A DNA stretch of 64,000 nucleotides from Mobula hypostoma (taxonomy: Eukaryota), in NCBI RefSeq assembly GCF_963921235.1, contig NC_086097.1:26228001-26292000 (forward strand). Reading direction: 5' to 3'. The position numbers and the translations under genes were made by a program. The notes under the pieces were generated by a model. That model worked only from the letters and a program-made list of their open reading frames with translations. It ran no database searches and had not been told where the DNA came from. Of the stretch, positions 2,566 to 61,163 are shown piece by piece. Each line of letters begins with the position of its first letter. Position 1 is the first letter of the stretch.

Positions 2566-2700
2566 AAGCAATAATCCAATTTGATATAGAAACATATGAA
2601 AAAAATTCAAACATCATGGAAACCAACCTGTTCTCAATGAACACACATAAAAGTTGCTGGTGAATGCAGCAGGCCAGGCAGCGTCTCTAGGAAGAGGTAC

Positions 2701-2736
2701 AGTCGACATTTCAGGCCAAGACCCTTCGTCAGGACT
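2701..2736 (-). ncRNA. Minimal hammerhead motif, variant (GAAAUGUC)
   Basis: Reverse complement AGTCCTGACGAAGGGTCTTGGCCTGAAATGTCGACT; same strand as the Penelope ORF, downstream of its stop. Confidence 0.62.
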
Positions 2737-4080
2737 AACTGAAGAAAGAGCTAGTAAGAGGTTTGAAAGTGGGAGGGGGAGGGGAGATCCAAAATGATAG
2801 GAGAAGACAGGAGGGGGAGGGATAGAGCCAAGAGCTGGACAGTTGATTGGCAAAAAGGGATATGAGAGGATCATGGGACAGGAGGCCCAGGGAGAAGGAA
2901 GGGGGGGGGAACCCAGAGGATGAGCAAGGGGTATTGTGAGAGGGACAGAAGGAGAAAAAGGAGAGAGAGAGAAAGAATGTGTGTATATAAATAAATAACG
3001 GACGGGGTACAAGGGGGAGGTGGGGCATTAGCGGAAGTTAGAGAAGTCAATGTTCATGCCATCAGGTTGGAGGCTACCCAAACAGAATATAGTGTGGCTT
3101 CATCTTTACAGTAGAGGAGGCCGTGGATAGACATATCAGAATGGGAATTGGACATGGAATTGGGCATGGCCACTGGAAGATCCTGCTTTTTCTGGTGGAC
3201 AGAGCGTAGGTGTTCAGCGAAACGATCTCCCAGTCTGCGTCGAGTCTCGCCAATGTATAGAAGGCCACATCAGGAGCACCGGACGCAGCATATCACCCCA
3301 GCCGACTCACAGGTGAAGTGTCGCCTCACCTGGAAGGACTGTCTAGGGCCCTGAATGGTGGTGAGGGAGGAAGTGTAAGGGCATGTGTAGCACTTGTTCC
3401 GCTTACAAGGATAAGTGCCAGGAGGGAGATCAGTGGGGAGGGATGGGGGGGACGAATGGACAAGGGAGTCGCATAGGGAGCGATCCCTGCAGAAAGCAGA
3501 GAGAGGAGGGGAGGGAAAGATGTGTTTAGTGGTGGGATATCTGTTGGAGGTGGTGGAAGTTACGGAGAATTATATGTTGGACCCGGAGGCTGGTGAGGTG
3601 GTAGGTGAGGACAAGGGGAACCCTGTTCCTAGTGGGGTGGCGGGAGGATGGAATGAGAGCATGAAATTGGGGAGATGCGTTTGAGAGCAAAGCTACCCAG
3701 ATGGAATATAACACCTTATATTCCATCTGGGCAGCCTCCAACCTGATGGCATGAACATTGACTTCTCAAACTTCTGCTAATGCCCCACCTCCCCCTTGTA
3801 CCCCATCCGTTATTTATTTATATGCACACATTCTTTCTCTCACTCTCCTTTTTCTCCCTCTGTCCCTCTCACTATACCCCTTGCCCATCCTCAGGTTTTT
3901 CTCCCCCCTCCCCCTTTTCTTTCTCCCTAGGCCTCCTGTCCCATGATCCTCTCATATCCCTTTTGCCAATCACCTGTCCAGCTCTTGGCTCCATCCCTCC
4001 CCCTCCTGTCTTCTCCTATCATTTTGGATCTCCCCCTCCCCCTCCCACTTTCAAATCTCTTACTAGCTCTTCTTTCGGTT

Positions 4081-4116
4081 AGTCCTGACGAAGGGTCTCG
4101 GCCTGAAACGTCGACT
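4081..4116 (+). ncRNA. Minimal type I hammerhead ribozyme motif in the Penelope terminal repeat
   Basis: AGUC-CUGACGA-AGG(GUCUCGG)CCU-GAAA-CG-UC|GACU: catalytic boxes CUGANGA and GAAA, GUC triplet, stem I AGUC/GACU, palindromic ACGU in place of stem III. Confidence 0.75.
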
Positions 4117-5469
4117 GTACCTCTTCCTAGAGATGCTGCCTGACCTGCTGTGTTCACCAGCAACTTTTATGTGTGTTGCTTGAATTTCCAGCATCTGCAG
4201 GTTTCCTCGTGTCTGCTCTCAATGAACTCTGTGTATACTTGTTGCTGCCTCAGTAAAGCTGCTAGCATAAACCAAGACCCCACCCCACCCTGGACGTTCT
4301 ATCTTCTCTCCTCTCCTCTCGGACAGAAGGTACAAAAGCCTGTGGGGACACTCCACCAGGCTCAAGGACAGCTTCTACCCCACTGTAATATGACATTGAA
4401 TTGTGGGGTGTCATGGTAGTGTAGCGGTTAACATAACACTAATACAGCAGGCTTGTTGGGTCAGAAGAGCTTGTTATCATGCTGTATCTCAAAATAAAAT
4501 AAATAATTGAACGGTTCCCTAGTAAGATAAGATGGACTCTTGACCTTTCATTCTATCTTGCTATGAACTTGCACCTTAATGTCCACTTACACTGCACTTT
4601 CTCCGTAGCGGTTACACTTTACTCTGCATTCTGTTCATTGTGTAATGAATGGATCTGTGTGAACAGTATGCAAGACAAGTTTTCATTGTACCTCGTTACA
4701 TGTGACTCTAATAAACTAACTCCAGTTCCGAAGTACATTTGGTGAAAAGTGAGATAGAACAAGGAAGAAGTTCATTCAGTCTGGCACTTTTTCTGCCTTT
4801 GTACCACTTCTTCACGAGACAGATTTTTCATTTATATTGATGTTGTAGTGTGGTGCTTAGTTAGGTCCCAGAAGCAAATGGATTGCGCAAGGTACTTTAA
4901 AGATATTGAACAACTTTTGAAAAATATTTACTGTAGGGGTGATAAATTCTTTTCAAAATCTGGAATGAGAAATAGAGAATGAAAACCAAGTAAAACAGTC
5001 TCACCAGGTTTGGGACATTAAGCAGATATTAGATCAGGTTGTCCTGGGAACAACTGATGCTGGGTACTTCTGGGACAACAGAATTTCACAATGCACTGCT
5101 GTGTTGGGACCCCAAGGAGGGTGCAGTAGTTGTGGGTCTGGATCAATAGCGTAACATGTGACCGTTGTCCTCGGTATACAGAGGAACGATATTTTGGAGG
5201 AGCTACCAGAAAGCCTCTGGAGTAGCTGTCTGTTTTTCTCAGTAGAGCAGACACACAATGGAGCAGAGAGTATATGCCTCTCTGCGAGTTCTTTTGACTT
5301 AGCAGCTTTCTAACAGGATGCAGATCAGGGTGGAGAAGTGGTAAATGGAGTTCAACCTGGAAAAGTGTGAAGTGATTCAGTTTGAAAGGTTGAACTTGAA
5401 GGTAGAGCATAAGAGCAAGTAAAGGCATAGTTAAGAAGGGGTAAGCCTTTTTCTTTTTTAGTTTAGAGT

Positions 5470-8400
5470 AGTCAGGATGGAATGCTCCTCCTGACAGATG
5501 TGGAATCTCAGGATACCTGACTGTTTCTGTGATGACTACATCTGTGGGAGGTGCACCCATCTTCAGCGCCTGACTGACCGGGTCACGGAGTTGGAGCTGG
5601 AGCTGGACGTACTCAAGATTATTCGGGAGGCTGAAGATGTTATAGACAAGCCTTTTGAAGAGGTGGTCACACTCAGTGTATAGACTTCGGACAGTAGATG
5701 GCTGACCACCAGGAGAGGTAAGAGGTGTAAAAAGTCAGTGCAGGGCTCCCCTGTGGCCATTCTCCTCAGCAACAAGTATACCTCTTTGGATACTGCTGGG
5801 GGATCACGGCAGCTACAGCCAGGCTGGTGGTACTGTGGTTGGCTCTGAGGCTCAACATGGAAGGGTAAAGTCAGACAGTGGGTCGTTATAGGGGACTCGA
5901 TAGGGAGACAGAAAGGAGATTCTGTGGATGCAAAAGAGACACCAGGATAGTGTGTTGCCTCCCAGATGATAGGGTCCATGATGTATCGGAGCAGCTGCAG
6001 GATATTCTCGAGGGGGAAGGGGAACAGCCAGAGGTCATGTTGCATATTGGCACCAATGACTTGGGGAGAAAAGGGGAAGAGGTCCTAAACAGTGAGTGTA
6101 TAGAGTTAGGAAAGGGGCTGAAGAGAAGGACCTCCAAGGTTGCAATCTCTGGATTACTCCCTGTGCCACGGACTTGCGCAGGTAGGAATGGGGCGATAAC
6201 ATGAATGAATGAGTGGCTGTGGAGATGGTGCAGGGGACAGGGTTTCAATTTCTTGGATCATTGGAATTTTTTCTGGGGAAGGGCTGACCTGTACAAGAGG
6301 GACAGGTTGCATCTGAACTGGAGGGGAAACAATATCCTGTCTGGGAGGTTTGCTGATGGAGGGTTTAAACCGATTTTGCAGGGGGCTGGGAACCAGAGCC
6401 CAAGGTCATTAAAGGAAGGATTGGACTGAAAAGTAGATGTAAGCGAAAGTATAGAAAGGCAAAATCAAAATAACAGGTATGTTGGGTCGGATAGTTTGAA
6501 GTGTGTATACTTTAATGCTAGGAGTATTATGGGTAAGGGTGATGAACTTAGAGCATGGATCAGTACATGGAACTATGATGTTGTAGTCATTACTGAAACT
6601 TGGTTGAGAGAAGGGCAGGAAAAGGTGATTAATGCAAGAGGTTTTAGAAGTTTTAGAAAAGATAGAGGAGGAGGTAAAAGTGGGGGGTGTGGGGGGGGGG
6701 AACAGTTGCACTACTAATCAGGGACAATGTCACAGCTGCACCCAGAGGAGACATAATGGAGGGGTCAGACTCTGAGTCCATTTGGGTGGAACTCAAGAAT
6801 GGGATGGGTGCCATCACACTGATGGGATTGTACTACAGACCCCCTCATAGCCTCCGGGACATTGACAAACAGATATGTAATCAGATTAAGGAAATGTGTA
6901 AAAATAATAGGGTTGTTGTCATGGGGGATTTCAGCTTCCCTAATATAAACTGGGACCTTCTTAGTGTCAGGGGTTTAGATAGGGCGGAATTTGTTATGTG
7001 GATACAGAAAGGTTTCTTACATCAATATGTGGATGGTCCAATGAGAGGAGGGGCTGTACTGGACCTGGTGTGGGGTAATGAGCCTGGCCAGGTGACTGAC
7101 CTTTCAGTGGGCGAACAGTGACCACAACTCCTTAAATTTCAGGCCAACTATAGACAAGGATAGGTATGGTCCTTGTGGGAGAGTTTTAAATTGGAGTAGG
7201 GCAAATTATGAAGGCATTAGGCAGGAAGTAAGAAGCATTAATTGGGAATACCTTTTCTCTGGCAAGTCCACATCAGACATGAGGAGGGTGTTTTAAGATC
7301 AATTGTACAAGAAAGTCATGTTCCTGTTAGAAGGAAGAATGGGGATAGAAAGGTAAAAGAGGTGATGAATTTAGTCAAGAAGAAAAAGGAAAAGGATGTA
7401 AAGCTTCGGAAGTCAAGATAAAAAGGAAGCTCATGAGGATTATAAAGAAGCCCGTGAAGAACTAAAGAAAGGAATTAGGAAAGCCAGGAGGGGCTATGAA
7501 AAGTCTCTGGCAAGTAGGATTAAGGTGAATCCCAAGGTATTCCATACATACATCAAGAGCAAGAGGATAACTAGGGAGAGGGTGGAAACATTTGCTTAGA
7601 GGTAGAGAATGTGAGTGAGTATGTAACAAGTACTTTGCTTCAGTACTTACCAAGGAAAAGGATATGGAAGACCAGGAGATCAGTGCTGTGTGTATAAATA
7701 TGTTAGGGCATTTAGAGGTTAAGGAGGAGGAAGTGTTGGGCCTCCTAATGAGTATTAGGAGTACCTCCAGGTAAGTCCCCAGGTCCTGATAGGATTTACC
7801 CCAGGTTATTGACGGAGGCAAGAGATGAGATTGCTGGGCCCTTGGCCAGTATCTTTGTGTCCTCTCTGGACTGGTGAGTAGCTAATGTTTATTTAAGATG
7901 GAGCAAGGGAAATTCTTAGGAACTGTAGACTGGTGGAAATTGCTGGAGAAAATTCTTAGGGATAGGATATATGAACATTTGGAAACCCGTGGCTTAATTA
8001 GGGAGAGCTAGCATGGCTTTCTGCGGGGCAAGTTGTACTTTACCAACTTGATTGAGTTTTTTGACAAGGTGACGAGAGATATTGATGAGTGTAGAACAGT
8101 GGATGTTGTCTACATGGATTTTTGTAAGGCTTCTGACAAAGTCCGTCATAGGAGGCTAATCCAGAAGATTAAGATGAATGGGATCCGCAGCATATTCACT
8201 GTCTGGATTCAGAACTGGCTTGCGCATAGAAGACAGGGTACTGGTTGCAGAGACTTAGTCAAGCTGGAGGTCTGTAATTAGTGGAGTTCCACAGGGATCT
8301 GTGCTGGGACCTCTGCTGTTTGTGATGTATATAAACGACCTGGATGAAAATGTAGATGGATGGGTGAGTAAATCTGCAGATGATCCAAGATTGATGGAGT

Positions 8401-11959: not shown

Positions 11960-12415
11960 TACCAGATTTACAGTACACTGCCTGGATTGGACAGCATGTC
12001 TTATGAGGAAAGGCTGAGTGACCTAGGGCTTTTCTCTTTGGAGAGGAGGATGGGAGGTGACCTGATAGAGGTGTACAAGATGATAAGAGGCATAGATAGA
12101 GCGGCCAACTAGAGACTTTTTCCCAGGCTAGTACAAGGAGGCATCATTTTAAGGTACAGTAATGGGAGGAAACTATAATGGATTGTCATGGGTATTTTTA
12201 TACACAGAGAGGTAGGTGTGTGAAACAGGCTGCTGGGGGTGATTGTAGAGGTGGATTCAGGAGGGACATTTATGAGACTCTTTGATATGCACATGGATAG
12301 AGAAATGGAGGGCTATGTGAGAGGGAAGAGTGAGATTGATCTAGGAGTAGGTTAAAAGGTCAGCACAACACTGTGGGCTGAAGGGCCTGTAATGTGCTGT
12401 ACTGTTCTATGTTCC
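11960..12415 (+). mobile_element. CR1 3' fragment
   Basis: Remnant LPGL...YEERL..LGLFSLERR..GDLIEVYK plus tail ctgtactgttctatgttc. Confidence 0.8.
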
Positions 12416-12439
12416 ATATCCTGTTGTCAATTCGTCCCT

Positions 12440-13075
12440 CCCCACTATTCTCCCTCCTGACACCTATTCCTGCAAGTGGCAGAAGTACCCATTCACCTCC
12501 ATTCAGGGCATCAAACAGTTTTTCCAGGTGAGGAAGCACTTCACATGCGAACTTGTTGGGTTCATTTACGATATCTGGTTTGGCCTCCTTACATTGAGGA
12601 GAGCTGACATAGATTGGGACATCACTTTTTTCAGCACCTCAGCCCCATCTGCAAAAAATGGAATTTCCCATTGGCTAACCATTTCCCACTCTGGCATCTT
12701 ACCTCTTCTCCTCACTTGCCTATCACCCCCACCCCCCGGTGCCCCTCCCCCTTCTCCAAAGATCCACTGTCCGCAGCTATCAGATTCCTTTTTCTCCATC
12801 ATTTTACCTTTTCCACCTCACATCCCAGCTTCTTACTTCATTCTGCCTTCTCCCACCCACCTTCCCCCTCACCTGATCACCTTTGAGTTTGTCCTCCTTC
12901 CCCTCCCCCACTTTCTTATTCTGGCTTCTTCCCCCTTCCTTTCCATTCCTCATGAATAGTCTCAGCCTGAAACATCAACTGTTTATTCATTTCCAAATAT
13001 GCTCTCCAACCTGCTGAGTTCCTCCAGCACTTTTTGTGTTGCTCTGGATTTTGGGTATCTGCAGAATCTCTTATG
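12440..13075 (+). mobile_element. Penelope-like 3' fragment (older subfamily)
   Basis: FQVRKHFTCE remnant, pyrimidine-rich UTR, decayed ribozyme motif and terminal repeat. Confidence 0.75.
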
Positions 13076-13545
13076 TTCCATGTTCTTTAGTTAGTTTAAC
13101 TTACCACCTTCCTTGCTTTATTTTAGGAAGTGACGCTGATACTTAGATCAAGTCCCTTACTTACCTTTGATCTTTGAAGGGCCTCCAGCTGGCCAGTCAC
13201 CACTTGAAACGCCATCCAGAACAAGGCACAAGATTTTCCAACTAGATTTTGCTTTGATTGATAGTTTCCTGATTGGACAAGAAACACTGGGAGCTCCAGT
13301 CTTTCCCACTAGCTCCATCCTTACCTCACCTGCTTCTTGAGCCCAATTACTTGCAATCCATGTCCCATGTGGGGCCACTTTACCCAATCCCTCCCTTTGC
13401 AGCCCAATCTCATTTGCCAATACCCACCCTTTTGCCATGTATCTTGCTGGTCAAGCAGACCTTAATCCTCAGGCATTGGCTTGAATCCTGAGGCTCTGGA
13501 CCCAGCTCTGACTGAGACTGAACAATTTTGACAATGAAAATGTAC

Positions 13546-13780
13546 GCAACACACATCAAAGTTGCTGGTTGAACGCAGCAGGCCAAGCAGCATCTAGAGG
13601 AAGAGGCGCAGTCGACGTTTCAGGCCGAGACCCTTCGTCAGGAGTCCTGACGAAGGGTCTCGGCCTGAAACGTCGACTGCGCCTCTTCCTATAGATGCTG
13701 CTTGGCCTGCTGCGTTCAACCAGCAACTTTGATGTGTGTTGCTTGAATTTCCAGCATCTGCAGAATTCCTGTTGTTTGTG
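13546..13780. mobile_element. Minimal fold-back Penelope insertion (98-bp inverted arms plus 38-nt tail)
   Basis: Arms 13546-13643 and 13645-13742 with 1 mismatch. TSD aat(g/a)aaaatgtac at 13533-13545 and 13781-13793. Confidence 0.92.
13643..13678 (+). ncRNA. Minimal hammerhead ribozyme motif
   Basis: Identical to 4081-4116; mirrored on the minus strand at 13610-13645. Confidence 0.72.
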
Positions 13781-15149: not shown

Positions 15150-15490
15150 ACTTGCTATCACACCCTTGTCCCTCTGGTTCCACTCCTCCTTCCCTTTTAT
15201 CCACCAATCACCTCCCAGCTTCTTACTTCATTCCCCCTTCTCCCACCCACCTACCTTCTCCCTCACCTGGTCTCACCTATCACCTGCCAGCTTGTAAACC
15301 TTCCCTTCCCGCACCACCTTTTTAAAAATCTAGCTTCTTCCTCCTTCCTTTCCAGTCCTGATAAAGAGTTTCGACCTGAAACGTCAACAGTTTATTCCCC
15401 TCCATAAATGCTGCTTGACCTAATGAGTTTCTCCAGCATTTTGTGTGTTGCTCAGGATTTCCAGCATCTTCAGAATCTCTTGTGTTTATG
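15150..15490 (+). mobile_element. Penelope-like 3' terminal repeat
   Basis: cagtcctgataaag...gaaacgtcaac...tccagcattttgtgtgttgc...ttccagcatc. Confidence 0.75.
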
Positions 15491-16429
15491 ACCACCTATT
15501 CTTCAGAAAGACATCTCCAATAACACAGCACTCCCTCTGCACTGAAGAACTGTGCAATATTTTAGAAAGTAGCTTCAACCTATGACCGAGAAGCAATGAG
15601 CTGCAGATGACAAACTATCTCTCAGCCTCCACTGATGTTCCATGACCTACAGAGTTCCTTCAGCAGTTTGTTTCATTTTCAACCACTAACTCTCTGCCTC
15701 AGGAAGTGCTCTTGGTTTCCAAAGGCAGAAGATTCTGCATTGATGTAGCACAGAGCAAAATGCTTCAAGTTGCTTCTTCAGATTGTAATGGAACAAAATC
15801 TGACACTGAACCATGATGGGGATATTTGGACAGCTTGTTCAAAAAGGCAGTTTATCAGAAACACCTTATAAGAGTTGACAGTGATATGGAAATGTGGGAG
15901 GAAATTCCAGAGGCAAGAGTGGAGCTGGAGCCCAGTTCGACTGAAGTACAGAGAGAGGGAAGGGCAAAACCATGGGAGTAAAAATACAAATAAATGGGTT
16001 CAATACAGTGTATACAGAAGGAACCAGACTGCAATATGGAATTTTTTCCAAAATTAATTGTCTTATATGAAGTAAAACTTTCCCATAAGTATCAGAATAT
16101 TTGTAGCCACTGTAATTCTAATTGAGAAATCATGTCAAATGCCAATCAATGAATTGGCTGGGATCAGTATTCCATTAATCCAGACTAAAGGAACAGGGCA
16201 TAAGAAACCCCTTACCATACATTCCAATAAGTGACAGGACACCATGTGGCCTGGAGGCTGCTCACCAAGAATACCTGGATGTGAATTAAGTACCAAGGCC
16301 TCCTATGACTAGTGTCTCTGCTGGTAGGATGAGGAATGGCATATCCATGACATAGAGAATAAAAACCACAACTTACCTACATATTTAGGTCTCTACATTT
16401 CTGTAGGTGATACCTACAAGGTCCGACAT

Positions 16430-17362
16430 CCAGGAAAACACACACAAAATGCTAGAGGACTCAGCAGTCAGGCAGGATCTGTGGAAAGGAATAAAGAGTC
16501 CATGTTTTGGGCCAAGACCCTCTGGACTGGAACAGAAGGGGAAAGAAGCTGGTATAAGGAGGTGGGGGGAGGAGGAGAAGGAGTACAAGCTGGAAGGTGA
16601 TAGGTGAAGCCAGGTGAGGGGGGAGGCAGGTGGGTGGGGGGAAGGGTGGGTGAACTGAGAAGTTGGGAGGTGAGATGTAGAAGAAGACTGAAAGAAGAGG
16701 AATCGGATAGAAGAGAAGAGAACAGAATCAAATAGAAGAAAGGGAAGGATGGAACCAGAGGGAGGCGATGGACAGGAGAAGATAACAGAAGGAGTGAGAG
16801 GGGATCCAGAATGAGGAATGGAAAAAGAGAGAAGGGGGAAGGCAAAAAATTACTGGAAGTTAGAGAAATTGATGTTCATGCTGTCAGGTTGGAGGCTACC
16901 CAGACGGAATATGAGGCGTTGCTCCTCCAACCTGAGTGTGGCCTCATCATGGCAGTAAAAGAGTCAATGGAGTGAAATTAAACGCAAACAACAGGAATTC
17001 TGCAGATGCTGGAAATTCAAGCAACACACATAAAAGTTGCTGGTGAACGCAGCAGGCCAGGCAGCATCTCTAGGAAGCGGTGCAGTCGATGTTTCGGGCC
17101 GAGACCCTTTGTCAGGGCTAACTGAAGGAAGAGTGAGTAAGGGATTTGAAAGTTGGAGGGGGAGGGGGAGATCCAAAATGATAGGAGAAGACAGGAGGAG
17201 GAGGGATAGAGCCAAGAGCTGGACAGTTGATAGGCAAAAGGGATACAGTGAAATGTTGAAATGGGAATGGGAAGTTGAATTGAAATAAGTGGCCACTGGG
17301 AAATTCTGCCTTTTGTGTTGGATGGAGTGAAGATACTCGACAAAGCGGTCTCCCAATCTCCA
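16430..17362 (-). mobile_element. Older Penelope fragment with a younger Penelope 3' end (~16980-17246) nested in it
   Basis: GDRFVEYL and EEQRLIFRLGSLQPDSMNI remnants. The nested copy is flanked by agtgaaat at 16971 and 17247. Confidence 0.75.
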
Positions 17363-18619
17363 TCCTTTAGTACGACCTATAGAGTTCCAAATTTGACCTG
17401 TAAAATGGACGTGGATTACTTACAACCCCACTCTTTCCAAATCCTTATCCTTCATTGAGCAATAGACAAGACAGAAAAAAATCCGACAATATTCTTCAGA
17501 TTGCTTTCTATCTGCAAGTCATGGTTTGAATATGAAACCCTTAATGAAAATACCATTGAGTGCACAAGTCAAAACCTCAGTATCAATTAATACTTAAAAG
17601 CATTAGTTTATTTTTGTTTGACAAGTACACTGAAGGGCTTGGGAGCAAGGTTACTTACATATGAGTTAAAGTGCAGGTTCAGCATAATCTAATACCTCCC
17701 CAGAAACCCGAAGACGGAAGTCAGTGACACTCCAGGGAAGAACTGAGAGAGCGTTGCCTTCTTCAGGCTGAGTTTTTGAAAAATCCATCAGCACTTCTAA
17801 AGAGGATATAGTTGTGTGTGGGCCAGGGCAGGAAGTCTCTGGCTACACAAGGCTTCCATTCCTGAAAACTGTCCATAAGCTGCTTTCTCCATATTTCAGG
17901 GATGTCTGTTTCCCAAAGAAACCTATACCATATCACTCCATACACACTTGCTATAGTTATAACATAGAACAGTACAGCACAGTACAGGCCATTCAGCCCA
18001 TTATGTTGTGCTGGTCTTATAGCCTGCTCTGATCATTTTAACCCTTCCCTCCATTTTTCTATCATCTACATGCCTATCTAAGAGTTTCTTAAATGTCCCA
18101 AATGTATCTGCCTCTACCACCAACCATGGAAGGGCATTCTCTGCGACCACCACTCTCTGTAAAAAGTTTACCCCTGACGTTCCTCTATACTTCCAATTCT
18201 TTCATTTAATTGACTAACCACTCTAACAGTACTGATAATTAAAATAAAGGTATACAGTTTCCAGTCATTAATGAATTCTATGAAATATTTTATTATTAAC
18301 TAGCTTGAAAAAGCTTTTAAAGTATTTGGGATTATTTGCATAAAATCAGATTTTTTGTAAATCAGGTCATTCATAACCCAGAGACCCTGTATTAATCCTA
18401 CAATCATCATCACAAAAATAGATGATCTGGTCGTTATTATGTTGCTGACCGTGGAGTGTGCTTTGCTGAAATCAGTTTTCCATTCCTCCTAACTGTTCAA
18501 TATTACTTCATTGATTACAAAGGGGGTCCCTGAAAGGAATTTGGAAGACACCTACTCAGTCAGTTGGAGGAGGTTCAACTTAACCAGTTTCTACAAAGAG
18601 CAGCAGGATTAGCTGTGTG

Positions 18620-27144: not shown

Positions 27145-27694
27145 TTAATTTTTTGCTGAATGTTGCTGCTCTTTCTGCCCTTTTGAAGTGCGGTTTGTGA
27201 TGTTATCCAAACACGAGCGGATCCCTGCCAAGTGCAGGAGAGAACCTGCTGCCTCTTTCATCTCCTCATCATCGCTCTCCGGCGGTTTCTCTGTACGCCT
27301 CTTTTTAAGTGGCAGTGTTTCAGTTGCGTGTTTTTTTGCTTTTGCCAGGTGTTGCCGTTTTGTGTGCTGAGACAAGTACCCACTGTCAGCTAAGGAATCC
27401 TTGGTTTCCTTTTTGTTTTTTCTCTCCTCGTCTTCTGTCTCACTGTAGCTCTCGTGGCTGTGGTAGCTGGCTTCGCTGCCCTCGCTCCCATTGTGGCTGA
27501 CCTTTGCGGCAAACTCATAGTGGTCGTCAGCGGAGGAAGAGGATGTCGAGTCGCTGGTCGGGGACGTACTCCTGTGATTGGAAGATGATTTTGCCACGCT
27601 GTAGTTGTGGTCATCTTTAGGGTCGTTGCTGACGACCGGGGAGCCACAGGATTGTTCGCTGTCATTTCGCATCCGACAGTTCACAATTCCGTTC
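27145..27694 (-). CDS. FOXN3: FOXN3 last coding exon (C-terminal region, stop TAA at 27145-27147)
   Basis: Translation (R)[32 protein letters not shown]...DDHYEFA...DSGY...[50 protein letters not shown] matches the FOXN3/CHES1 C-terminus as I recall it. Acceptor cttcag|G at 27695/27694; the phase-2 join AG|G gives Arg. Confidence 0.95.
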
Positions 27695-28938
27695 CTGAAG
27701 GAGTTTAAAATAAAAGACAGGCCAATTAGCTCATTAAAGCGCCACACAGTAATATGTTCAACAACTGTGTACTGTTGCACAATGTAATCATAGAACTAAA
27801 TGTACTAGTGGGAATGCTAGTCTGCACTTCCCAATTGGCAGTACTTCTGAAAATTTTCCATGGGAAAAGGTTAGGTTTTAGGATCTCCCTTTGCTCATGG
27901 GAAAGTTCTATCTAAGGGTTGCATCCTTATAAGCAATTTTAAATTGTTATAAAAGCAAAATAATCCAAAAAAAACATAAACTTCTAAGATGCCTCTGCCA
28001 AGACAAATGGCAACTTGTTGGTCTGCCTGAGTAGTCAGAGCCCCTGGGCCGGTGTGGCCAGAGATCAGAGGTCAGAGGCCCAATGTCTGTGAGTCTGGTG
28101 CCAAGGATTGGAGGTTGGAGACCCGGGGGGTCTGTGCTGGGGTTGGAGGTTTGGCTGTGTGGGTGGGTGACAGGGGAGGTGGAAAAGGGGTTTGTTTTGC
28201 TGTTAGTTATTTTGTTTTTCTGCTGTTATTCTTGTGTTGAACGTTGTGGACATGCTATATTTGTGTCAGGATATGTGGTGCTGACCCCAGCACATCCTTA
28301 GGTTGTGTTGGGCGTTAACGCAGACGTAATTCACTAAATGTTTCAATGTACATGTGATAAATAAATTTCAATGAATGACCATGACAGCAACTGGAGTTGA
28401 GAAGTCTCCAGTCCCAACTGTTTTGTAGGCTTCATTTTGAAAGGGAATCTTTTTGACTCTAAACAAAGGAAAATAATAATTCTTTGTCAACCATCTGTGC
28501 CTTTTTATTCACAACAGTTTCCTGCCTGGAAACTGTTGCTACAGATTCCAATCTCCTGTGTCTCTGGTTCTCTGCTTGTCCTGGTAAAAACTATATATTT
28601 CATGTCTTCTTGACTCCTGACTCTTTATCCTTGACATCCAGAGTCCTGAGAAACCTTTTGCTATGACCATTCATTTAAATCAGGCTCCCTGATGCATTGT
28701 AGATGACCTCCCAACTCCCAGGCACAGAACATTCACATCATGAAGAGCAACCCCAGAAAAGTGCTTGGGAAGACCAAAGATGCATTTCTCATTTTATAAC
28801 ACTTAAACTGCACCGTATGCCCCTCACCTGTTAATGATAGCTGGGGGAGGATGGGTGGACAGGGAGGAAGAAATTGATTTTTTCCCCCTTCACCATCAGA
28901 TTTCTGAACAGTCCATGAACCCAATCTCTCTATTTTGC

Positions 28939-29143
28939 ACAAACAAGAGAAAAACTGCAGATACCAGAAATTTGAGTAACACACACAAAATGCTGAGGGA
29001 ACTCAGCAGGCCAGGCAGCATCTATGGAAAAAAAGTACAGTCGATATTTTGGCCCGAGACCCTTTAGCAGGAATCATCGACTGTACTTTTGTCCATAGAT
29101 GCTGCCTGGCCTGCTGAGTTCCTCCAGCATTTTGTGTGTGTTG
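28939..29143. mobile_element. Fold-back Penelope insertion, older subfamily
   Basis: Inverted arms ~28975-29045 and ~29076-29143. Perfect 13-bp TSD ctctctattttgc at 28926-28938 and 29144-29156. Confidence 0.85.
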
Positions 29144-30220
29144 CTCTCTATTTTGCTCTGTCTTTGTGCTACATACTTACGTTTTAAATTTGTTATTGTA
29201 ATTTTTTATGTATCGCATTGTGCTACTGCTGCAAAACCCCAAATTTTGTGACATATGTTAGGTATCAGTTATAATAAACCTATTCGATGACCATAAGGCG
29301 TAGAAACAGAATTTCAATTCTGGTTTTTAGGTTACTGTTAATGCAAATAAAATAATTTACATGAAATGCTCATTATTTAGAACATAGAAGGTTACCCCAC
29401 AATGCTGTGCCAGCCTTTTAACAATCTAACCCTTCCCACCTACATAACCCTCTATTTTTCTATCACTCATGTGGTTATCTAAGAGTTACCTAAATGCCCC
29501 TGGTGTACCTGCCTCTACTCTGGCAGATTCCATGCACCCACTGCATTCTGTGTAAAATTCCCACCTCTGACATCCTCCCTATACATTTCTCTTATCACCT
29601 TCAAGTTCTGCCACCTCACATTAGCCATTTCAGCCCCGGGGAAAGTCTCTGGCAGTCCACTGTATTTGCTTCTTATCATCTTGTATATCTCTACCAAGTC
29701 ACCTCTCACCCTCCAGGACTTGGCCGCAGAAGACAAGGACATCCGTTTAGAACAGAGATGAGGAAGAATTTCTTTAACCAGATAGTGGTGAATCTCTGGA
29801 ATACACTGCCACAGACGGTTGTGGAGGCCATGACATTGGGTATACTTAAAGTGGAGGTTGATAGGTTCTTGATTAGTAAGGGTGTCAAAAGTTATGGGGA
29901 CAAGGCAAGAAAGTGGAGTTGAGAGTGTAATAAATCAGATGTGATTGAATGGCGGAGGATAGTTGATAGGCCAAATAATCTAATTCTGCTCCTATGCCGT
30001 TTGGACTAATGGTCTCTTTTGGTGCCTCTGGAACAACCCTGAAGTGGAGTGTTGGGCTGAGTATGAGTCAGCAGATGACAAAGACATCACCTACTGTCTG
30101 GTGAATAAATAAACAAATAAACAATTTGGACAAATTTGGACAAATAAACAACTATCTCTGAGACAGAGATGTACAGCAAAGAAATGGGCCTTTGGTCTAT
30201 CGTGTTAAGGCTAACACGAT

Positions 30221-32598
30221 TAGTTTGTTAAGTGTGTCCAGGACGGATTCCTGTCATAGTATGTGGACAGGCCGACTGGGGGAATGCCACACTAGATCTA
30301 GTACTAGGTAATGAACCGGGTCAGGTCACAGATCTCTCAGTGGGTGAGCATCTGGGGGACAGTGACCACCGCTCCCTGGCCTTCAGCATTATCATGGAAA
30401 AGGATAGAATCAGAGAGGACAGGAAAATTTTTAATTGGGGAAAGGCAAGTTATGAGGCTATAAGGCTAGAACTTGCGGGTGTGAATTGAGATGATGTTTT
30501 TGCAGGGAAATGTACTATGGACATGTGGTCGATGTTTAGAGATCTCTTGCGGGATGTTAGGGATAAATTTGTCCCAGTGAGGAAGATAAAGAATGGTAGG
30601 GTGAAAGAACCATGGGTGACAAGTGAGGTGGAAAATCTAGTCAGGTGGGAGAAGGCAGCATACATGAGGTTTAGGAAGCAAGGATCAGATGGGTCTATTG
30701 AGGAATATAGGGAAGCAAGAAAGGAGCTTAAGAAGGGGCTGAGAAGAGCAAGAAGGGGGCATGAGAAGGCCTTGGCGAGTAAGGTAAAGGAAAACCCCAA
30801 GGCATTCTTCAATTATGTGAAGAAAAAAAGGATGACAGGAGTGAAGGTAGGACCAATTAGAGATAAAGGTGGGAAGATGTGCCTGGAGGCTGTGGAAGTG
30901 AGCGAGGTCCTCAATGAATACTTCTCTTCGGTATTCACCAATGAGAGGGAACTTGATGATGGTGAGGACAATATGAGTGAGGTTGATGTTCTGGAGCATG
31001 TTGATATTAAGGGAGAGGAGGTGTTGGAGTTGTTAAAATACATTAGGACAGATAAGTCCCCGGGGCCTGACGGAATATTCCCCAGGCTGCTCCAGGAGGC
31101 GAGAGAAGAGATTGCTGAGCCTCTGGCTAGGATCTTTATGTCCTCATTGTCCACAGGAATGGTACCGGAGGACTGGAGGGAGGTGAATGTTGTCCCCTTG
31201 TTCAAAAAAGGTAGTAGGGATAGTCCAGGTAATTATAGACCAGTGAGCCTTACGTCTGTGGTGGGAAAGCTGCTGGAAAAGATTCTTAGAGATAGGATCT
31301 ATAGGCATTTAGAGAATCATGGTCTGATCAGGGACAGTCAGCATGGCTTTGTGAAGGGCAGATCGTGTCGAACAAGCCTGATAGAGTTCTTTGAGGAGGT
31401 GACCAGGCATATAGATGAGGGTAGTGCAGTGGTTGTGATCTATATGGATTTTAGTAAGGCATTTGACAAGGTTCCACACGGTAGGCTTATTCAGAAAGTT
31501 AGAAGGCATGGGTTCCAGGGAAGTTTGGCCAGGTGGATTCAGAATTGGCTTGCCTGCAGAAGGCAGAGGGTGGTGGTGGAGGGAGTACATTCAGATTGGA
31601 GGATTGTGACTAGTGGTGTCCCACAAGGATCTGTTCTGGGACCTCTACTTTTCGTGATTTTTATTAACGACTTGGATGTGGGGGTAGAAGGGTGGATTGG
31701 CAAGTTTGCAGACGACACAAAGGTTGGTGGTGTTGTAGATAGTGTAGAGGATTGTCAAAGATTGCAGAGAGACATTGATAGGATGCATAAGTGGGCTGAG
31801 AAGTGGCAGATGGAGTTCAACCCAGAAAAGTGTGAGGTGGTACACATTGGAAGGACAAACTCCAAGGCAGAGTACAAAGTAAATGGCAGGATACTTGGTA
31901 GTGTGGAGGAGCAGAGGGATCTCGGGGTACATGTCCACAGATCCCTGAAAGTTGCCTCACAGGTGGATAGGGTAGTTAAGAAAGCTTATGGGGTGTTAGC
32001 TTTCATAAGTCGAGGGATACAGTTTAAGAGTCGCGATGTAATGATGCAGCTCTATAAAACTCTGGTTAGGCCACACTTGGAGTACTGTGTCCAGTTCTGG
32101 TCACCTCACTATAGGAAGGATGTGGAAACATTGGAAAGGGTACAGAGGAGATTTACCAGGATGCTGCCTGGTTTACAGAGTATGCATTATGATCAGAGAT
32201 TAAGGGAGCTAGGGCTTTACTCTTTGGAAAGAAGGAGGATGAGAGGAGACATGATAGAGGTATACAAGATAATAAGAGGAATAGATAGAGTGGATAGCCA
32301 GCGCCTCTTCCCCAGGGCACCACTGCTCAATACAAGAGGACATGGCTTTAAGGTAAGGGGTGGGAAGTTCAAGGGGGATATTAGAGGAAGGTTTTTTACT
32401 TAGAGAGTGGTTGGTGTGTGGAATGCACTGCCTGAGTCAGAGGTAGAGGCAGATACACTAGTGAAGTTTAAGAGACTACTAGACAGGTATACGGAGGAAT
32501 TTAAGGTGGGGGCTTATATGGGAGGCAGGGTTTGAGGGTCAGCACAACGTTGTGGGCCGAAGGGCCTGTACTGTGCTGTACTATTCTATGTTCTATGT
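30221..32598 (+). mobile_element. Young 5'-truncated CR1-clade (HER1-like) LINE in the last FOXN3 intron, antisense to the gene
   Basis: Endonuclease C-terminus (LDLVLGNEPG...SDH), full RT, short 3' UTR and (TTCTATG)n tail. Confidence 0.95.
30517..32403 (+). pseudogene. CR1 ORF2 reverse transcriptase, 628-aa open remnant
   Basis: Motifs [43 protein letters not shown]. Bounded by in-frame nonsense codons at about 30487 and 32401, so truncated. Confidence 0.92.
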
Positions 32599-34915: not shown

Positions 34916-36438
34916 AATACTTTATCTTTAACTCTCCTGCAGCAATGAACTGGTTAGTGTAGAGAGTCGTCTTTTGGGAGGCTGATGCAGTTGCTTAGTT
35001 ATGGGACTTGGACAGTGCTATCTCTCCGTTCCCTGCGTGGAGATCATTCTGTGTCCTTTCACATCACCACCTACCGGATGTGAGGTGGACCTGATGAGGG
35101 GCCTTGGCCCAAAAGCTGCTTGGGGGAACGGTTCTTGATTAATATGGAGGTCAAAGGTCACGGGGAGAAGGCAGGAGAATGGGGTTGAGAGAAATAGTAG
35201 ATCAGCCATGACCGAATGGTGCAGCAGACTCATCAGGTTGAATGGCCCATTGCGGCTCCTGTATCTTATTGGCCTGATATAATTAGATCCCTGCTATGAC
35301 AACAGTTGGTGGACAGTCCTTGTGTGTAAGTGGTGGGGGCTATGTGGCTGGGAGGGAGGAACAGGGCTCATTTCGCTGCTGTTCTTTCTTATTTTTCTGT
35401 GTTCTTCTGCTGAACATGCTGGGCACACTATGTTGGCACCAGACTGTGGAGTGCCACTTCTCGGCTGCCCCCAGCACATCCTTAGCTCACTTCCTCATTG
35501 AGCCAAATGACACATTTCACTGTATGTCTCTACGTACCTTACGTGATAAATAGATCTGAGTTAAAGATCATGTTAGAGTTTAGGGACAGGTATGTGGGGG
35601 AGTGAGAGGACAGGCTGCAGTCTAGGCCTTCGCTCCACGCATGAAGGCCAGTGCATGGACTTTGTGCCAGCAAACCAATGAGGATTGAAACATAGAAAAC
35701 GTACAGCACAGTACAGGCCCTTCGGCCCACAAAGCTGTGCTGAACATGTCCCCACCTTAGAACTACCGAGGCTTTACCCATAACCCTCTATTTTTCTAAG
35801 CTCCATGCATCCATCCAGGAGTCTCTTAAAATACCCTATCGCTTCCGCCTCCACCACATCCTTCCTTTGTGTTGGTTGTTAACACAAATGATGCATTTAA
35901 CTGTATGTTTCGAGGTACATATTATAAATAAATCTGATTCTGCAATCTTAATCTGTATTTGAATCAACAGCCTTCCTAAAATCCACAATAAGGTTTCTAA
36001 GGGACGCTAAACAATGTACTTCACTTTAAAGGGAGTCTGAAAAATCACGGGAGCAACAGTGGACACCAAGACCAGCTCTCCTTGTCCTGATAAAGGGTCT
36101 TCGTCCAAAATGTCATGTTTATTCATTTCCATCGATGCTGCCTGACCTGCTGAGTTCCTCCAGCATTTTGTGTGTGTTACTCTGGATTTCCAGCATTTGC
36201 AGAACTCCTTGTATTTATGAAGATAATGAATGTAGATTGAACAGAGCTAGTCACACAAGAGATACAATGTACTAAATTTATGAAAAATACTTTCCAATCC
36301 ACAAAAATTAGACATTTCTTCTCCTGACACTAGCAAATAATTCCTTCCAGCAAGTTTTTGGAAACTATGCTATATCCGTTTTTTTTTGAAAGAACTGAAC
36401 TCATAGTCCTTCTTCTTTAACCAGAGTTCATTCCTATA

Positions 36439-37329: not shown

Positions 37330-37620
37330 ATTCTGGGTCTCCATCTAGCGTGTCTCGTGTTCTTGGTGCAGCCTCCTTCACATCGGTAAGACCCGACAAA
37401 GATTTGGGGACTACTTCGTTGAGCAATTTCACTCCCTTCACAACAAGGAGGATTGCCCTACAGTCAACCATTTTAATTCCAATCCTCACTCCCATTCCGA
37501 CATGCTGGTCTATGGCCCCCTCTACTACCACAATGATGGGAAGAACAACACTTTATATTCCTCCTGGGTAAGGTCCAATCCGACAGTATGAACAGCAATT
37601 TCTCTAACTTCCGGTAATTT
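37330..37620 (+). mobile_element. Penelope GIY-YIG fragment
   Basis: Remnant CSLLHIGKTRQRFGDYFVE...EEQ...SNFSNFR. Confidence 0.7.
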
Positions 37621-37634
37621 TTTCCGCCACGGCC

Positions 37635-38060
37635 CAGTACATCACGGGTAAGACCCTCCCAACCATTGAGCACATCTACATTAAACGTTGCTGTAGAAAA
37701 GCAGCATCCATCATCAAAAATCCTCACCACGCAGACCATCCTCTTTTCTCGCTGCTGCCATCAGGTAGGAGGTACAGGTGCCTCAGGACTCGCATAACCA
37801 GGTTGAAGAGCAGTTACTACCCCTCAACCATCAGGCTCTTGAACAAAAGTGGATAGCTACATTCTTTTAAGGACTCTGTTATATTGTTATTTCATGTTCA
37901 TTATTTGTTGCTATTTATTTATATCTGCATTTGCACAGTTTGTTTATAGTTCCTGATGTTTACAGTTACTGTTCTACAGATTTGCTAAGTATGCCCGCAG
38001 AAAAAAGAATCTCAGGGTTGTATGTGGTGTTATGTATGTATTCTGATGATAAATTTTACT
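37635..38060 (+). mobile_element. Rex1/Babar-like LINE 3' fragment
   Basis: KAASIIKNPHHADHPLFSLLPSGRRYR...SYYPSTIRLLN. Confidence 0.7.
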
Positions 38061-38064
38061 TTGA

Positions 38065-39000
38065 CCTCCCCCTTCTCTCTTCTTCTGTTCCCCATTCTGG
38101 TCCCCCTCTTACCTTTTCCCTTCTCACCTGCCTGTCACTTCCCTCAGATACCCACCTGCCCTCCCTTTCTCCCATGTTCCACTCTCCTTTATCACATTCC
38201 TTCATCTTCACCTTTTCCACCCTTCACCTCCCAGCTTCTCACTTCATTACCCCTCCCCCACCCACCTAGCTTCTAGGGTTGCCAACTGTCCCGTATTAGC
38301 CAGGACATCCCGTATATTGAGCTAAATTGGTTTGTCCCATATGGGACCGCCCTTGTCCCATATTTCCCCCGCTAAGGTAGAGCGTTCCTATGAAACTTTT
38401 TGTGCTGAAATGGCGTAAAGCGAAGAAGCAATTACCATTAATTTATATGGGAAAGATTTTTCAGCATTCCCAGACCCAAAAAATAACCTTACCAAATCAT
38501 ACCAAATAACACATAAAACCTAAAATAACACTAACATATAGTAAAAGCAGGAATGATACGATAAATATACAGCCTATATAAAGTAGAAATACTGTATGTA
38601 CAGTGTAGTTTCACTTAATAGAATCGGCAAGATTAAGCCAAAACCGATTTGTAGAAAAAAAATCAGAACATACACGCATGCGCATGTTACGTACGTGCAC
38701 ACAGGTGCCTGTGCAAGGCTTCATGGTCATGGTAGTCTTTCTCGGGGTAAACACAAGTGTCCCGTATTTGACTGCTACTTTTGTCCCTTATTTGGGAGTG
38801 AGAAAGTTGGCAACCCTACTACCTTCCCACCAACCTGGCTCACTTGTCACCTGCCAGCTTGTACTCCTTGTTTTCCCCACCTTCTTCTCCCTTCCATTCC
38901 AGTCCTGATGAAGGCTCTCGCTCTGACACATTGACTCTTATTCCTCGCCATAGCTTCTACTTGACCCGCTGCATTCCTTCAGCATTTTGTGTGTGTTGCC
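38065..39000 (+). mobile_element. Penelope 3' repeat interrupted by a hAT MITE
   Basis: Pyrimidine-rich UTR on both sides of 38274-38818, then cagtcctgatgaagg and the terminal repeat. Confidence 0.7.
38274..38818. mobile_element. Non-autonomous hAT-type MITE (545 bp)
   Basis: Perfect 14-bp TIR TAGGGTTGCCAACT / AGTTGGCAACCCTA. 8-bp TSD cta(g/c)cttc. Subterminal tgtccc(g)tat repeats at both ends. Confidence 0.88.
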
Positions 39001-42380: not shown

Positions 42381-43899
42381 AAAAGTGTGGTCTAACCAGA
42401 GTTTATAGAACTGCAACATCACCTCGCGGCTCTTGAACACAATACAGTAAAAATCAGCATGTTAGCAAAATAAATCATCATTTCCTAATTACACATTCCA
42501 ATGAATTTTTACACCAAGATGTTTGCCACCCCCCAAGATCTATCCAGCTTCTGTCAGTCACACAGTCACTGATGCTTGGTATGATCTGAAACAATCAGTC
42601 ACCCTCTGAAAGGAGCAACAAAACGCTGGAGGAACTCAGCAGGTCAGGCAGCATCAATGGAAAGGAATAAACAGCTGATGTCCCATCAAGACTGGAAAGG
42701 AAGGGAAAAGAAACCAGAATGAGAAGGGGAAAGGGAAGGAGTACAAGCTGGCAGGTGATAAGTTGCATTCCTTCCCCTCTCCCTTCCTTCTTATTCTGGC
42801 TTCTCCCCGCTTCCTGTCCTAGGGTTTTGTCTGGAAAATACTATATCATGCAAGTGTCACATTAATCAGTAGACCTGCATTTTTGCATTTTGATGACAAG
42901 GTGCTCAGATGCAAAACTGAGAGTACATTTAGCAATTTTCATCAGTTTGCTGACCTTATTTGCATATTACAATATTTCACATTAAATTAATTAAGATCTC
43001 CAACATTTCCACTTCTACAATGCTACAATACAAAGAGCAGTTTATGTTCAGATTCCTTGTGGTGGCGAACGATATGATAACCCGCCCAAAAGTAGCAACG
43101 CCTGGATAAACAACGGCCCATGGAAACCAACAACACTCATCTTTGATATGATTGGAGTAATTGTTCAGTGTCGGCAATGCTATCTTTGAACACACACACA
43201 GATTTGATCAACCATTAACATCAAGTTATAGTATGGCCTGCCAGAAATATCAAAGGCATGATCACGTTACAGTCAATGACGTTGTAGTTTAGGACATTGA
43301 ATCTAATATTGCCTCATCACTCTTTAGTTGGATGGAAAAAAATTATCGCCAAACCTCACAAACATTCTTTTCACAGCTCTTCCCCAGCTTACAAACATCT
43401 GATTTATGTACCTTTGGTACATAAGAACACAAGAGGTTCTGTAGATGCTGGAAATCCAGAGTAAGACACAGAAAACGCTGGAGGAAATCAGTAAGTCGGG
43501 CAGCATCTATGGAGCGGAGTAAACAGTCATGTCCAATCATGTCCACAAGGTGCTTGAATACCAGCATGCATTATGTAGGCCATAGACAAAAGAATAGAAA
43601 ACAAATTTCCAGCATTACTTTACATAATGATGGATTTCAAGCAACTATTTCTCATACAGGAGTAACACAGGGTATATAGACACGCTACCGTATGATCGTA
43701 AGTAATAAGATTATGGGAAAATATCACTGCATCTATTTGAATGCGTATCTAAATGGATACAATGAAATCAATAGGTACAATTGCTATCTACAGTCTAAAT
43801 TTCTAATATGGGTAAAGGTAGATTTATAAAGTTTTTCAGTTGTATTGTTAAAGAACCATTTTCTAAAATGGACTAACTGCAAAATTCAAGTAGTCAAAA

Positions 43900-46469: not shown

Positions 46470-47357
46470 CTGAAATGAGAAAAAAGAGCTACATTTATTC
46501 TTGACAAATGCTGCTGGGCTGGTGGAAGAGGAACTGAACATAATTCTGCAAGAATGACCCCATCTTTACATGTTACAGCCAGTAAACAGGACCTGAGATA
46601 TTTTTTCCATCCGATGTTGTTAGTGAAAATATTACAAGCATATTAAATATTTAGAAGGTGCAAAAAAGCATCGACGTGTGACTAATGCTTTGTCAGGCCA
46701 GCCAAATTTGTCTTCCCTCACAGGTTCTCAAATAATAGGATTATTGACATGCAACAAAGCGTTAGCTGTAGCGTTCATGTAGAACCACTGCCAGAACAGA
46801 CAAAACACTAAAATCTCTCCGCCTGTCTCTGGGGAAAACAGCAGATCCAATAATACAGAGAGATCTTTGCACTCCTCATCCATTACACAAGTTGCAATGA
46901 TTCTTCAGCTAAGCCTTTGCAAATACTGCTACCTAACTTTTAAATTTAAACAGGTTGAGAGGACTGTCATTTATTATTTCTCAGAGATCTGAGTAAATAT
47001 CTCTGATTGGAAATTTTTCATCAGTATTTGCAACTTGATTTTTCAGATCTCAATTTTCAGATACATCACCAGCTGCATGAACAGACTGGAGTTTCAAGAA
47101 CTAGGATGATTAAAGACTATTGTAATAGAGTGGTTCCAGTCTTTTAGGTAGTGAATAAAGAGCAAATGTTTCCACTGCTGCACGGCTGAAAATCCAAAGA
47201 ATCCAGACAGTGGTAAAGGAAGGCTATGGTGAAATCCTGATGAAGATAAAGTCCCTGGTTGAAATGTCTACTGTTCATTCCTCTTTAGAGATGCTGCCTG
47301 ACTTAATGAGTTCCTCTGTTACAAAAGAATCAGAGGATTTGTTTTAAGTTATTTTTT

Positions 47358-51714: not shown

Positions 51715-51948
51715 ACAAACAAGAGAAAATCTGCAGATTCTGTAAATTCAAGCAACACATACAAAATGCTGGAGGAACTCAGAAGGCCAGGCAGCATCTA
51801 TGAAAAAAAGTACAGTCGACATTTTGTGCCAAGACCCTTCAGCAGTTCGGCAGTTCTGCCGGAGAGTCTCAGATTGAAACGTCATCGACTGTACTTTTTT
51901 CCACAGATGCTCCCTGGCCTGCTGAGTTCCTCCAGCATTTTACGCGTG
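51715..51948. mobile_element. Fold-back Penelope insertion, older subfamily
   Basis: Inverted arms aaaatgctggaggaactcag... / ...ctgagttcctccagcatttt. TSD-like tatc(t)n-aaa at 51701 and 51949. Confidence 0.8.
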
Positions 51949-61127: not shown

Positions 61128-61163
61128 AGTCCTGACGAAGGGTCTCGGCCTGAAACGTCGACT
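61128..61163 (+). ncRNA. Minimal hammerhead ribozyme motif
   Basis: Identical to 4081-4116. Confidence 0.72.

Follow-up and report, generated by a model that had tools for sequence, protein, structure and literature searches.

A minimal type I hammerhead sequence in an abundant Penelope-like element, Neptune-type by its motifs, of the ray Mobula hypostoma

The window analysed here, a stretch of 64,000 nucleotides from the ray Mobula hypostoma (contig NC_086097.1, positions 26,228,001 to 26,292,000), contains many copies of a 36-nt motif, the reference being the one at 4081-4116 (Table 1). As a preliminary description of this DNA had stated, CUGACGA, GAAA, the GUC triplet, a 4-bp stem I, and the ACGU palindrome are all present; the 36-mer recurs exactly on the plus strand at 4081, 13643, and 61128, and near-identical copies lie on the minus strand at 60480 (1 mismatch) and 2701 (2 mismatches). 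A further minus-strand copy with 1 mismatch, at 13610, was absent from the earlier list. The copies described there as decayed do show 7 to 12 mismatches at 12945, 15354, 29039, 36083, 38901, and 51814, as does 51852, but the minus-strand copy at 17084 differs by only 4, one of which is G8 of the core. A mismatch scan of the window returned 14 sites within 12 mismatches of the 36-mer; the copy at 47235, with a 4-nt insertion, was seen in a profile search only. Seeded with 9 window copies, this search detected 23 repeat arms (E ≤ 0.05), and the reversed window yielded 0. With a strict minimal-hammerhead descriptor, 5 matches were obtained (4081, 13643, 61128, 60480, and 2701), with 0 in each of 100 block shuffles; CUGANGA, GAAA, and NUH are present in type I order in the 5 intact copies, and the predicted cut falls between 4112 and 4113, after GUC. 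A covariance model made from 6 window motifs and 11 motifs of relatives (see below) yielded 7 strong and 5 weak matches in the window. Rfam gave no match at gathering score across the whole window and, in 2600-4300, no hammerhead family even at E-values as high as 10, the E-value scan returning microRNA-family matches to the palindrome at the 3690-3737 junction, one lncRNA match, and nothing else; the hammerhead assignment therefore rests on the descriptor, the context, and the relatives. The anticipated large genomic load was borne out, as the family spans 6,319 bases (9.9%) of the window in hand-set intervals and 8,000 to 48,000 contigs were obtained per sequencing run. We conclude that the motif is a genuine and very abundant minimal type I hammerhead sequence of a Penelope-like element.

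Table 1. Coordinates of the hammerhead, its neighbouring elements, and the repeat copies in the window
Feature	Position	Strand	Details
Reference hammerhead	4081-4116	+	stem I 4081-4084/4113-4116; CUGACGA 4085-4091; unpaired A4092; stem II 4093-4096/4101-4104; GAAA 4105-4108; palindrome 4108-4111; predicted cut 4112/4113
Pyrimidine tract and AG at hammerhead 5' edge	4053-4083	+	from sequence; putative initiator-like element or 3' splice acceptor
Conserved block behind hammerhead, ending at short 3' end	4131-4187	+	BLAST ends, majority-letter comparison
Tail of ~30 nt, on one arm per inverted pair; long 3' end	4188-4216	+	
Insertion 1, long arm	3710-4216	+	GIY-YIG end (stop 3778-3780), 300-nt pyrimidine-rich 3' region, hammerhead, tail
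Insertion 1, short-ended arm	2634-3660	-	RT-thumb end, CX4CXXC linker, GIY-YIG remnant (stop and frame breaks), 3' region, hammerhead 2701-2736
Older-subfamily copy	12400-13077	+	linker region to tail; decayed hammerhead 12945
Young palindromic stub	13535-13779	.	both arms from hammerhead 5' edge, joined 13643-13645; target duplication 12/13
Older-subfamily copy	15189-15488	+	decayed hammerhead 15354
Older-subfamily copy, split by 16985-17245	16425-17380	-	hammerhead near 16500 with core deletion
Young single arm	16985-17245	-	hammerhead 17084-17119 (core G8 changed); inside GIY-YIG region of older copy
Older palindromic stub	28935-29152	.	long arm (-) from 5' edge, short arm (+) near cut site; target duplication 13/13
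Older single stub	36084-36217	+	from hammerhead 5' edge
Older copy in pieces, other sequence between	37352-38999	+	GIY-YIG 37352-37623; 3' region 38060-38274 and 38813-38900; hammerhead 38901
Older copy	42615-42819	-	deletion in hammerhead; short inverted piece on 5' side
Older stub	43426-43523	-	from near predicted cut site
Older stub	47234-47316	+	from hammerhead 5' edge; 4-nt insertion in stem II
Strongly diverged hammerhead-like copy	47846-47935	-	perhaps further subfamily
Older palindromic stub	51706-51953	.	two decayed hammerheads; target duplication 14/15
Young inverted insertion	60407-61263	.	target duplication 11/12
Minus arm of that insertion	60407-61047	-	GIY-YIG end, hammerhead 60480-60515 (GUU triplet)
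Plus arm of that insertion	61083-61263	+	hammerhead 61128-61163 and tail

Outside this family, the minus-strand open frame at 27148-27795 resembles the terminal coding exon of FOXN3 (Atlas score 0.97, 226 of 256 features, low recognition value); if it is that exon, the copies above 27.8 kb would lie in introns of the gene, and the minus arm at 60480, with its intact core, would be read in sense. On the plus strand, 30490-32403 encodes, without interruption, 637 aa of reverse transcriptase from another retroelement (Pfam RVT_1, E = 3.9e-36), presumably CR1/L2-like; older fragments lie at 1892-2425 and 6678-7121.

The hammerhead had been placed on the coding strand about 300 nt past the GIY-YIG stop, and in the three young copies with stop and motif alike the distance is indeed 300, 291, and 294 nt; from the hammerhead to the two alternative 3' ends it is 70 to 105 nt. 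Window copies of the family code for the RT-thumb end, the linker, and GIY-YIG only, and neither an RT core nor a full-length element was found in the 64 kb. The remnant at 3096-3569 on the minus strand consists of linker and GIY-YIG with one stop (Pfam GIY-YIG only at E = 0.068) and is 68 to 86% identical to proteins of M. hypostoma and Hypanus sabinus and 59 to 64% identical to shark proteins (Rhincodon, Stegostoma). Twelve longer protein relatives were present among 204 candidates, all but one from ray or shark, and P0009 and P0013 have RVT_1 (below the Pfam cut-off) followed by GIY-YIG. The CX4CXXC linker is located at residue 55 of P0001; for the CCHH motif, CXXC is found in P0001 and both histidines in P0003, P0004, P0009, and the 60810-61040 remnant, the second histidine being gone from the 3096-3569 copy. 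The CX2-5CxxC linker is absent in Penelope/Poseidon, and CCHH is absent in Hydra and Chlamys (Craig et al. 2021, PMC8557442), so the presence of both features rules out Penelope/Poseidon and Hydra, with Neptune and Nematis as the remaining candidates; because vertebrates yielded only Neptune and Poseidon elements in a 2026 retrozyme preprint (bioRxiv 10.64898/2026.07.22.740005), Neptune is preferred. The earlier description of a Neptune-type Penelope-like element with a hammerhead in its terminal repeat thus agrees with the linker, CCHH, and GIY-YIG context, the putative clade being assigned from motifs rather than a tree. The predicted protein of one Stegostoma entry (P0010) reads through the 3' region, and its last 15 residues weakly match the hammerhead translation (E = 6), which suggests a shark family with the same motif at the same place. 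Element ORF makes up most of three ray gene models (P0005, P0006, and P0011), which are annotated as a kinase-domain protein, mucin-2, and a chitinase-domain protein, a probable case of misannotation or exonisation.

More distant relatives were gathered as 93 loci at 36 to 57% protein identity, composed of 13 prokaryote-labelled contigs and the best 80 of 448 metagenome loci, all of them presumably animal DNA within those assemblies. The former (L001-L013) are hammerhead-bearing Penelope-like elements in contigs filed as bacterial genomes and are probably animal DNA carried into bacterial assemblies. Within this set, with its best 80 of 448 metagenome loci, a model-free descriptor detected 25 motifs in 22 of the 93 loci versus 0.05 in shuffles, and the same fold was found 3' of the ORF in 70 of the 93, with 81 matches to the covariance model, which had been partly built from 11 of them. 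Exact degenerate motif scans returned 0 hits each in metagenome, prokaryote, and viral contigs, and a protein-based locus search of viral contigs returned 0 of 60 candidates. Other hammerhead families also occur in these loci (L001 at 4733-4777; L003 at 2187 on the plus and 295 on the minus strand; L023 at 2030 on the minus strand), with a 6-bp stem II and AUAU or longer palindromes, and one hammerhead among them is canonical, with helix III.

The fold had been drawn with a 3-bp stem II, in which A4092 pairs with U4104. This register is superseded by one of 4 bp with a CUCG loop and A4092 unpaired, which has 98.3% rather than 73.3% of stem II cells paired across the relatives (15 distinct rows) and an energy of -6.0 versus -4.6 kcal/mol; an unpaired base at 9/10.1 is seen in 24 of the 25 descriptor matches of relatives, and the published consensus of minimal hammerheads (min-HHRs) likewise has a base between 9 and 10.1 followed by a G10.1-C11.1 pair (PMC4209133). 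The helix III loop is absent, and positions 15.2-16.2 are palindromic (ACGU at 4108-4111); the CG centre of the palindrome is kept in 5 of 7 young arms, and in the relatives its C is found in 69 and its G in 75 of 81 matches. CUGACGA, the unpaired A, GAAA, and ACGUC are common to the ray motif and the main relative family, which differs from the ray motif in stem I (3 bp in relatives, 4 bp in the ray copy) and loop II. Of the covariation expected in the stems, two stem I pairs are changed on both sides between ray and relatives, but this compares only two lineages, and covariation within the 81 relative matches is weak (score 0.060, reached by 30 of 500 shuffles).

Position 11.1 is where the young ray copies depart from the consensus. 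It is U, forming a G-U wobble with 10.1, in 6 of the 7 young window arms, and the 17084 copy has G-C; by its 3' letter, the pair is G-C in 75 of 81 relative matches. Among the rows listed (40 of 105), C at position 4104 accounts for 67% and 83% of the summed contig depth of two sequencing runs and for 26% and 37% of that of two others, where depth is not copy number; U is the majority letter at 11.1 in 2 of the 4 runs. The six young arms with U11.1, which represent three insertions, keep most other CpG sites, so a U11.1 master lineage was probably amplified. Taken with the C found at U4 in 29 of the 81 relative matches, U11.1 in young arms may reflect relaxed catalysis. In ViennaRNA, a model that ignores core contacts, the double-hammerhead fold of a dimer reaches -9.5 kcal/mol versus -28.3 for the lowest-energy fold, and read-through RNA of the palindrome 13535-13779 is predicted to form one long hairpin of -212 kcal/mol in which both hammerheads are buried.

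Comparison of the majority letters of young (7) and old (6) arms reveals an abrupt conservation edge at 4081. Extra conservation of the core relative to its flanks, as had been anticipated, was obtained with respect to the upstream sequence (33/36 positions in the hammerhead versus 6/28) and not with respect to the downstream block (46/53) or the tail (26/31); the 14-nt spacer scored 8/14. The downstream block is as conserved as the core, and protein binding could therefore account for part of the conservation. In this block (61177-61250 and equivalents) a 7- to 8-bp helix with inner hairpins is predicted in several copies, and no single structure common to the copies was found. Such equal conservation with a sharp start at 4081, together with the stubs beginning at this edge and U11.1 in the young arms and in half of the runs, would be expected if the ray lineage had retained a hammerhead-derived structure without cleavage, serving with the downstream block as a folding, promoter, or protein-binding signal at the transcript start. 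We consider this highly improbable: at ~50% protein identity, the catalytic boxes (CUGACGA, GAAA, and UC) of the ray and of relatives agree in every letter, although stem I and loop II differ, and the G-U at 10.1-11.1 still pairs.

The arrangement of the copies bears on how they were made. Five insertions are head-to-head pairs with their 3' ends outward (2634-4216, 13535-13779, 28935-29152, 51706-51953, and 60407-61263), and each is surrounded by a target duplication of 12 to 15 bp with at most 1 mismatch (that of 2634-4216 being 15 bp, 14/15), a quality of match seen in no more than 0.75% of 400 random flank pairs; each pair is therefore one insertion event. The five target duplications are AT-rich unique sequence and not microsatellites, and in every pair one arm is about 26 to 33 nt longer by its BLAST ends. 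Loose contig ends are also found behind 4212 in 3 of 4 sequencing runs, among the rows listed. For the single arms 36084 and 15189, no target duplication above chance was detected. In the relatives, the ends of 73 of 97 aligned pieces fall into one or other of two zones, and 9 of the 11 loci with two motifs are tails-out inverted (among the 93 loci, including the best 80 of 448 metagenome loci). At the arm junction of the first insertion lies a small palindrome (3692-3735) with scrambled pieces of the GIY-YIG end and the weak microRNA-family matches. The window copies are dead, 5'-truncated insertions.

Three of the pairs are palindromes of only 220 to 250 bp with target duplications, and diagnostic letters are common to 29040 and 51815, as would be the case if the short palindromes were a separate non-autonomous family (MITE-like or retrozyme-like) copied as a unit. 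However, their three centres differ, and they represent at least 2 subfamilies, each of which has matching coding copies of greater length; inverted pairs, whether long or short, have one architecture, and the tandem units that define non-LTR retrozymes are missing, which makes a separate family decidedly improbable.

The preliminary description further proposed that tandem copies pair through ACGU and excise unit-length RNA. This cannot apply to the copies in the window, which are all head-to-head or single: no intact head-to-tail pair exists among the 23 arms, and the sole close same-strand pair with a young copy (16985-17245) is nested in an older copy, with both cores damaged. Nor was a same-family tandem pair present in any of the 93 relative loci, which are short contigs including the best 80 of 448 metagenome loci. 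Dimer cleavage by full-length tandem masters elsewhere in the genome is possible. In its general form, with efficient cleavage of tandem dimers releasing a unit-length, perhaps circularised RNA as the template of new insertions, the proposal has been made for min-HHRs (PMC4209133), and the title of Lunse et al. asserts dimer cleavage (via PMC6765202). The ACGU palindrome is kept in the ray and its relatives, and one other family has the palindromic AUAU. However, in the Anolis element the main substrate is uncut RNA and no read ends at the cut site (PMC11167929), and 8 of 9 Xenopus dimers did not cleave (bioRxiv 10.64898/2026.07.22.740005).

The 5' ends of the arms provide a more direct view of the RNA template. 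Of the 23 arms, decay prevents the scoring of 3; 10 extend into the 3' region or the ORF, 8 begin at equivalents of 4081-4090 (7 of them at 4081-4083), and 2 begin at equivalents of 4104-4114. Thus 18 of the 20 scoreable arms extend upstream past the cut site, and since the well-preserved arms all cross it, they were copied from uncut or re-ligated RNA. A re-ligated circle would likewise let cDNA cross the cut site, and the 2 arms starting near it are those that unit-length excision would predict; on balance we regard such excision as rather unlikely.

The pile-up of ends at the hammerhead edge may be an RNA footprint, transcription starting at the first base of stem I and run-off on uncut RNA producing the stubs and palindromes of 110 to 135 nt, a reading that we offer tentatively and as somewhat doubtful. 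In the three palindromes, which represent at least two subfamilies, the 5' boundary is physical, being fixed by the inverted partner; for 36084, 47235, and 47880, a subfamily flank outside the known ones could mimic a start at the edge. The edge carries a pyrimidine tract and AG in both young and old subfamilies, which fits the initiator-like consensus YYANWYY, with its A at 4081, and also that of a 3' splice acceptor; initiator-like 7-mers are of low information and occur several times in each 300-nt region. A splice acceptor at the same AG is the alternative for the edge, and run-off at a transcript start is favoured over it because the stubs share no upstream exon-like sequence. In the relatives, AG is absent at the hammerhead edge, neither pattern is conserved there, and the stem I edge accounts for a single one of 26 internal 5' ends; the pile-up is therefore not a general property.

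The sequencing runs were also considered in this respect. Contig joints that leap from the end of GIY-YIG to the hammerhead (3767 to 4081) appeared in the two runs taken as probable RNA but in neither of the others; they were not accepted as evidence of splicing, because the letters between are undefined and an older subfamily with a different 3' region gives the same signal. Loose contig ends before 4081-4082 are among the largest classes in all 4 runs (among the rows listed, 24 of 1,732), and they are not taken as support for the pile-up because their consensus resembles the older subfamily flank. A-to-G places number 13 and 12 in the two runs guessed to be RNA versus 5 and 5 in the others, an excess not read as editing because the organisms of the runs differ. 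If transcription does start at the edge, the messenger would begin with the hammerhead, and cutting would remove a capped 32-nt leader; the hammerhead would then act as a switch on RNA fate and not as a unit-length excisor.

Taken together, the reading we consider likely is that of a Neptune-type ray element whose hammerhead is kept in the masters and cleaves slowly and conditionally, and whose insertion proceeds by double priming without a need for it. The element protein would nick both target strands 12 to 15 bp apart, as the target duplications and the Anolis element suggest; reverse transcription would be primed from both nicks at two internal starts ~30 nt apart, and the two cDNAs would join head to head, giving inverted pairs with the tail on one arm. 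The RNA template would be uncut or re-ligated, in keeping with copies that cross the cleavage site. In the master lineage, the hammerhead would be under selection and would cleave as a dimer via ACGU, probably only with the help of protein, and such cleavage would process or regulate the element transcript. The insertion step itself would have no need for the hammerhead, and the dispersed window copies would be mostly inert.

This reading leans on the Poseidon element PAc of Anolis carolinensis (Frangieh et al. 2024, PMC11167929), in which both strands are cut and extended, the gap between two internal RT starts equals the tail, and insertion in vitro does not depend on the hammerhead, whose cleavage requires protein; Penelope min-HHRs show low activity as dimers and none as monomers (PMC4209133). 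Like the ray element, PAc has a terminal-repeat hammerhead and AT-rich targets, and the two 3' ends behind the ray hammerhead resemble its two RT starts. By analogy, 4131-4187 is a probable protein-binding and first reverse-transcription start region. However, PAc belongs to another clade, without the linker; its ORF starts inside the hammerhead, whereas a ray ORF start could not be placed in the window, and its RT starts lie in an AC-rich loop, whereas the ray 3' ends are GU-rich (PMC11167929).

Hammerheads in Penelope-like elements are, as the preliminary description acknowledged, a described phenomenon: min-HHRs were reported in 2014 in Xena, Poseidon, and Neptune elements of fishes, with thousands per genome (Cervera and de la Pena 2014, PMC4209133), mostly single and sometimes as opposite-strand pairs 100 to 700 bp apart. 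The ray motif shares their type I order, lack of a helix III loop, palindromic 15.2-16.2, unpaired 9/10.1 base, short helix I, and pseudo-LTR context, and differs in the G-U rather than G-C at 10.1-11.1 of its young copies. No shark, skate, or ray is named in the portion of that text covered or in its searchable supplement. With the Neptune clade (PMC8557442) the ray element has in common the C-terminal GIY-YIG, the CX2-5CxxC linker, CCHH, heavy 5' truncation, an inverted 5' copy, and a tail on one end (30 to 40 bp there, ~26 to 33 nt in the ray pairs), but the microsatellite bias of Neptune is not seen in the AT-rich, unique ray target duplications; Nematis shares the linker with the ray element and is the less favoured candidate clade. 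Non-LTR retrozymes (Li, Clavereau and Pollet 2026, bioRxiv 10.64898/2026.07.22.740005) are similarly non-coding, hammerhead-bearing derivatives of Penelope terminal repeats and were found in the one cartilaginous fish sampled, but they are tandem units, whereas ray copies are inverted or single. In Drosophila virilis Penelope, a 75-nt intron follows the transcription start by 46 nt, and this start is located far 5' of the hammerhead (Schostak et al. 2008, PMC2377424; PMC4209133), whereas no intron is shown in the ray copies, and the edge AG is missing in the relatives of the ray element.

In the parts of the literature covered (PMC6155905, PMC4350176, and PMC6765202 included), no paper on this ray family was found, and the recent shark and ray genome preprints searched do not mention "Penelope"; Repbase or Dfam may hold a named consensus, and the family may be among the cartilaginous-fish data of the 2026 retrozyme preprint. 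The same portion of the literature contains no statement of a 5'-end pile-up at the hammerhead edge, palindromic junctions being discussed there as self-priming. What is new here is the ray family member, the association of hammerheads with Penelope-like elements having been described already.

The described association is thereby extended to rays, in which the repeat makes up about one-tenth of the window. Stubs that start at the 5' edge rather than at the cut site provide a countable genomic signal, one that would separate unit-length excision from the copying of uncut RNA that starts at the ribozyme. If the ends do mark transcript starts, end counts over the abundant stubs of ray genomes would offer a test of Penelope hammerhead function.
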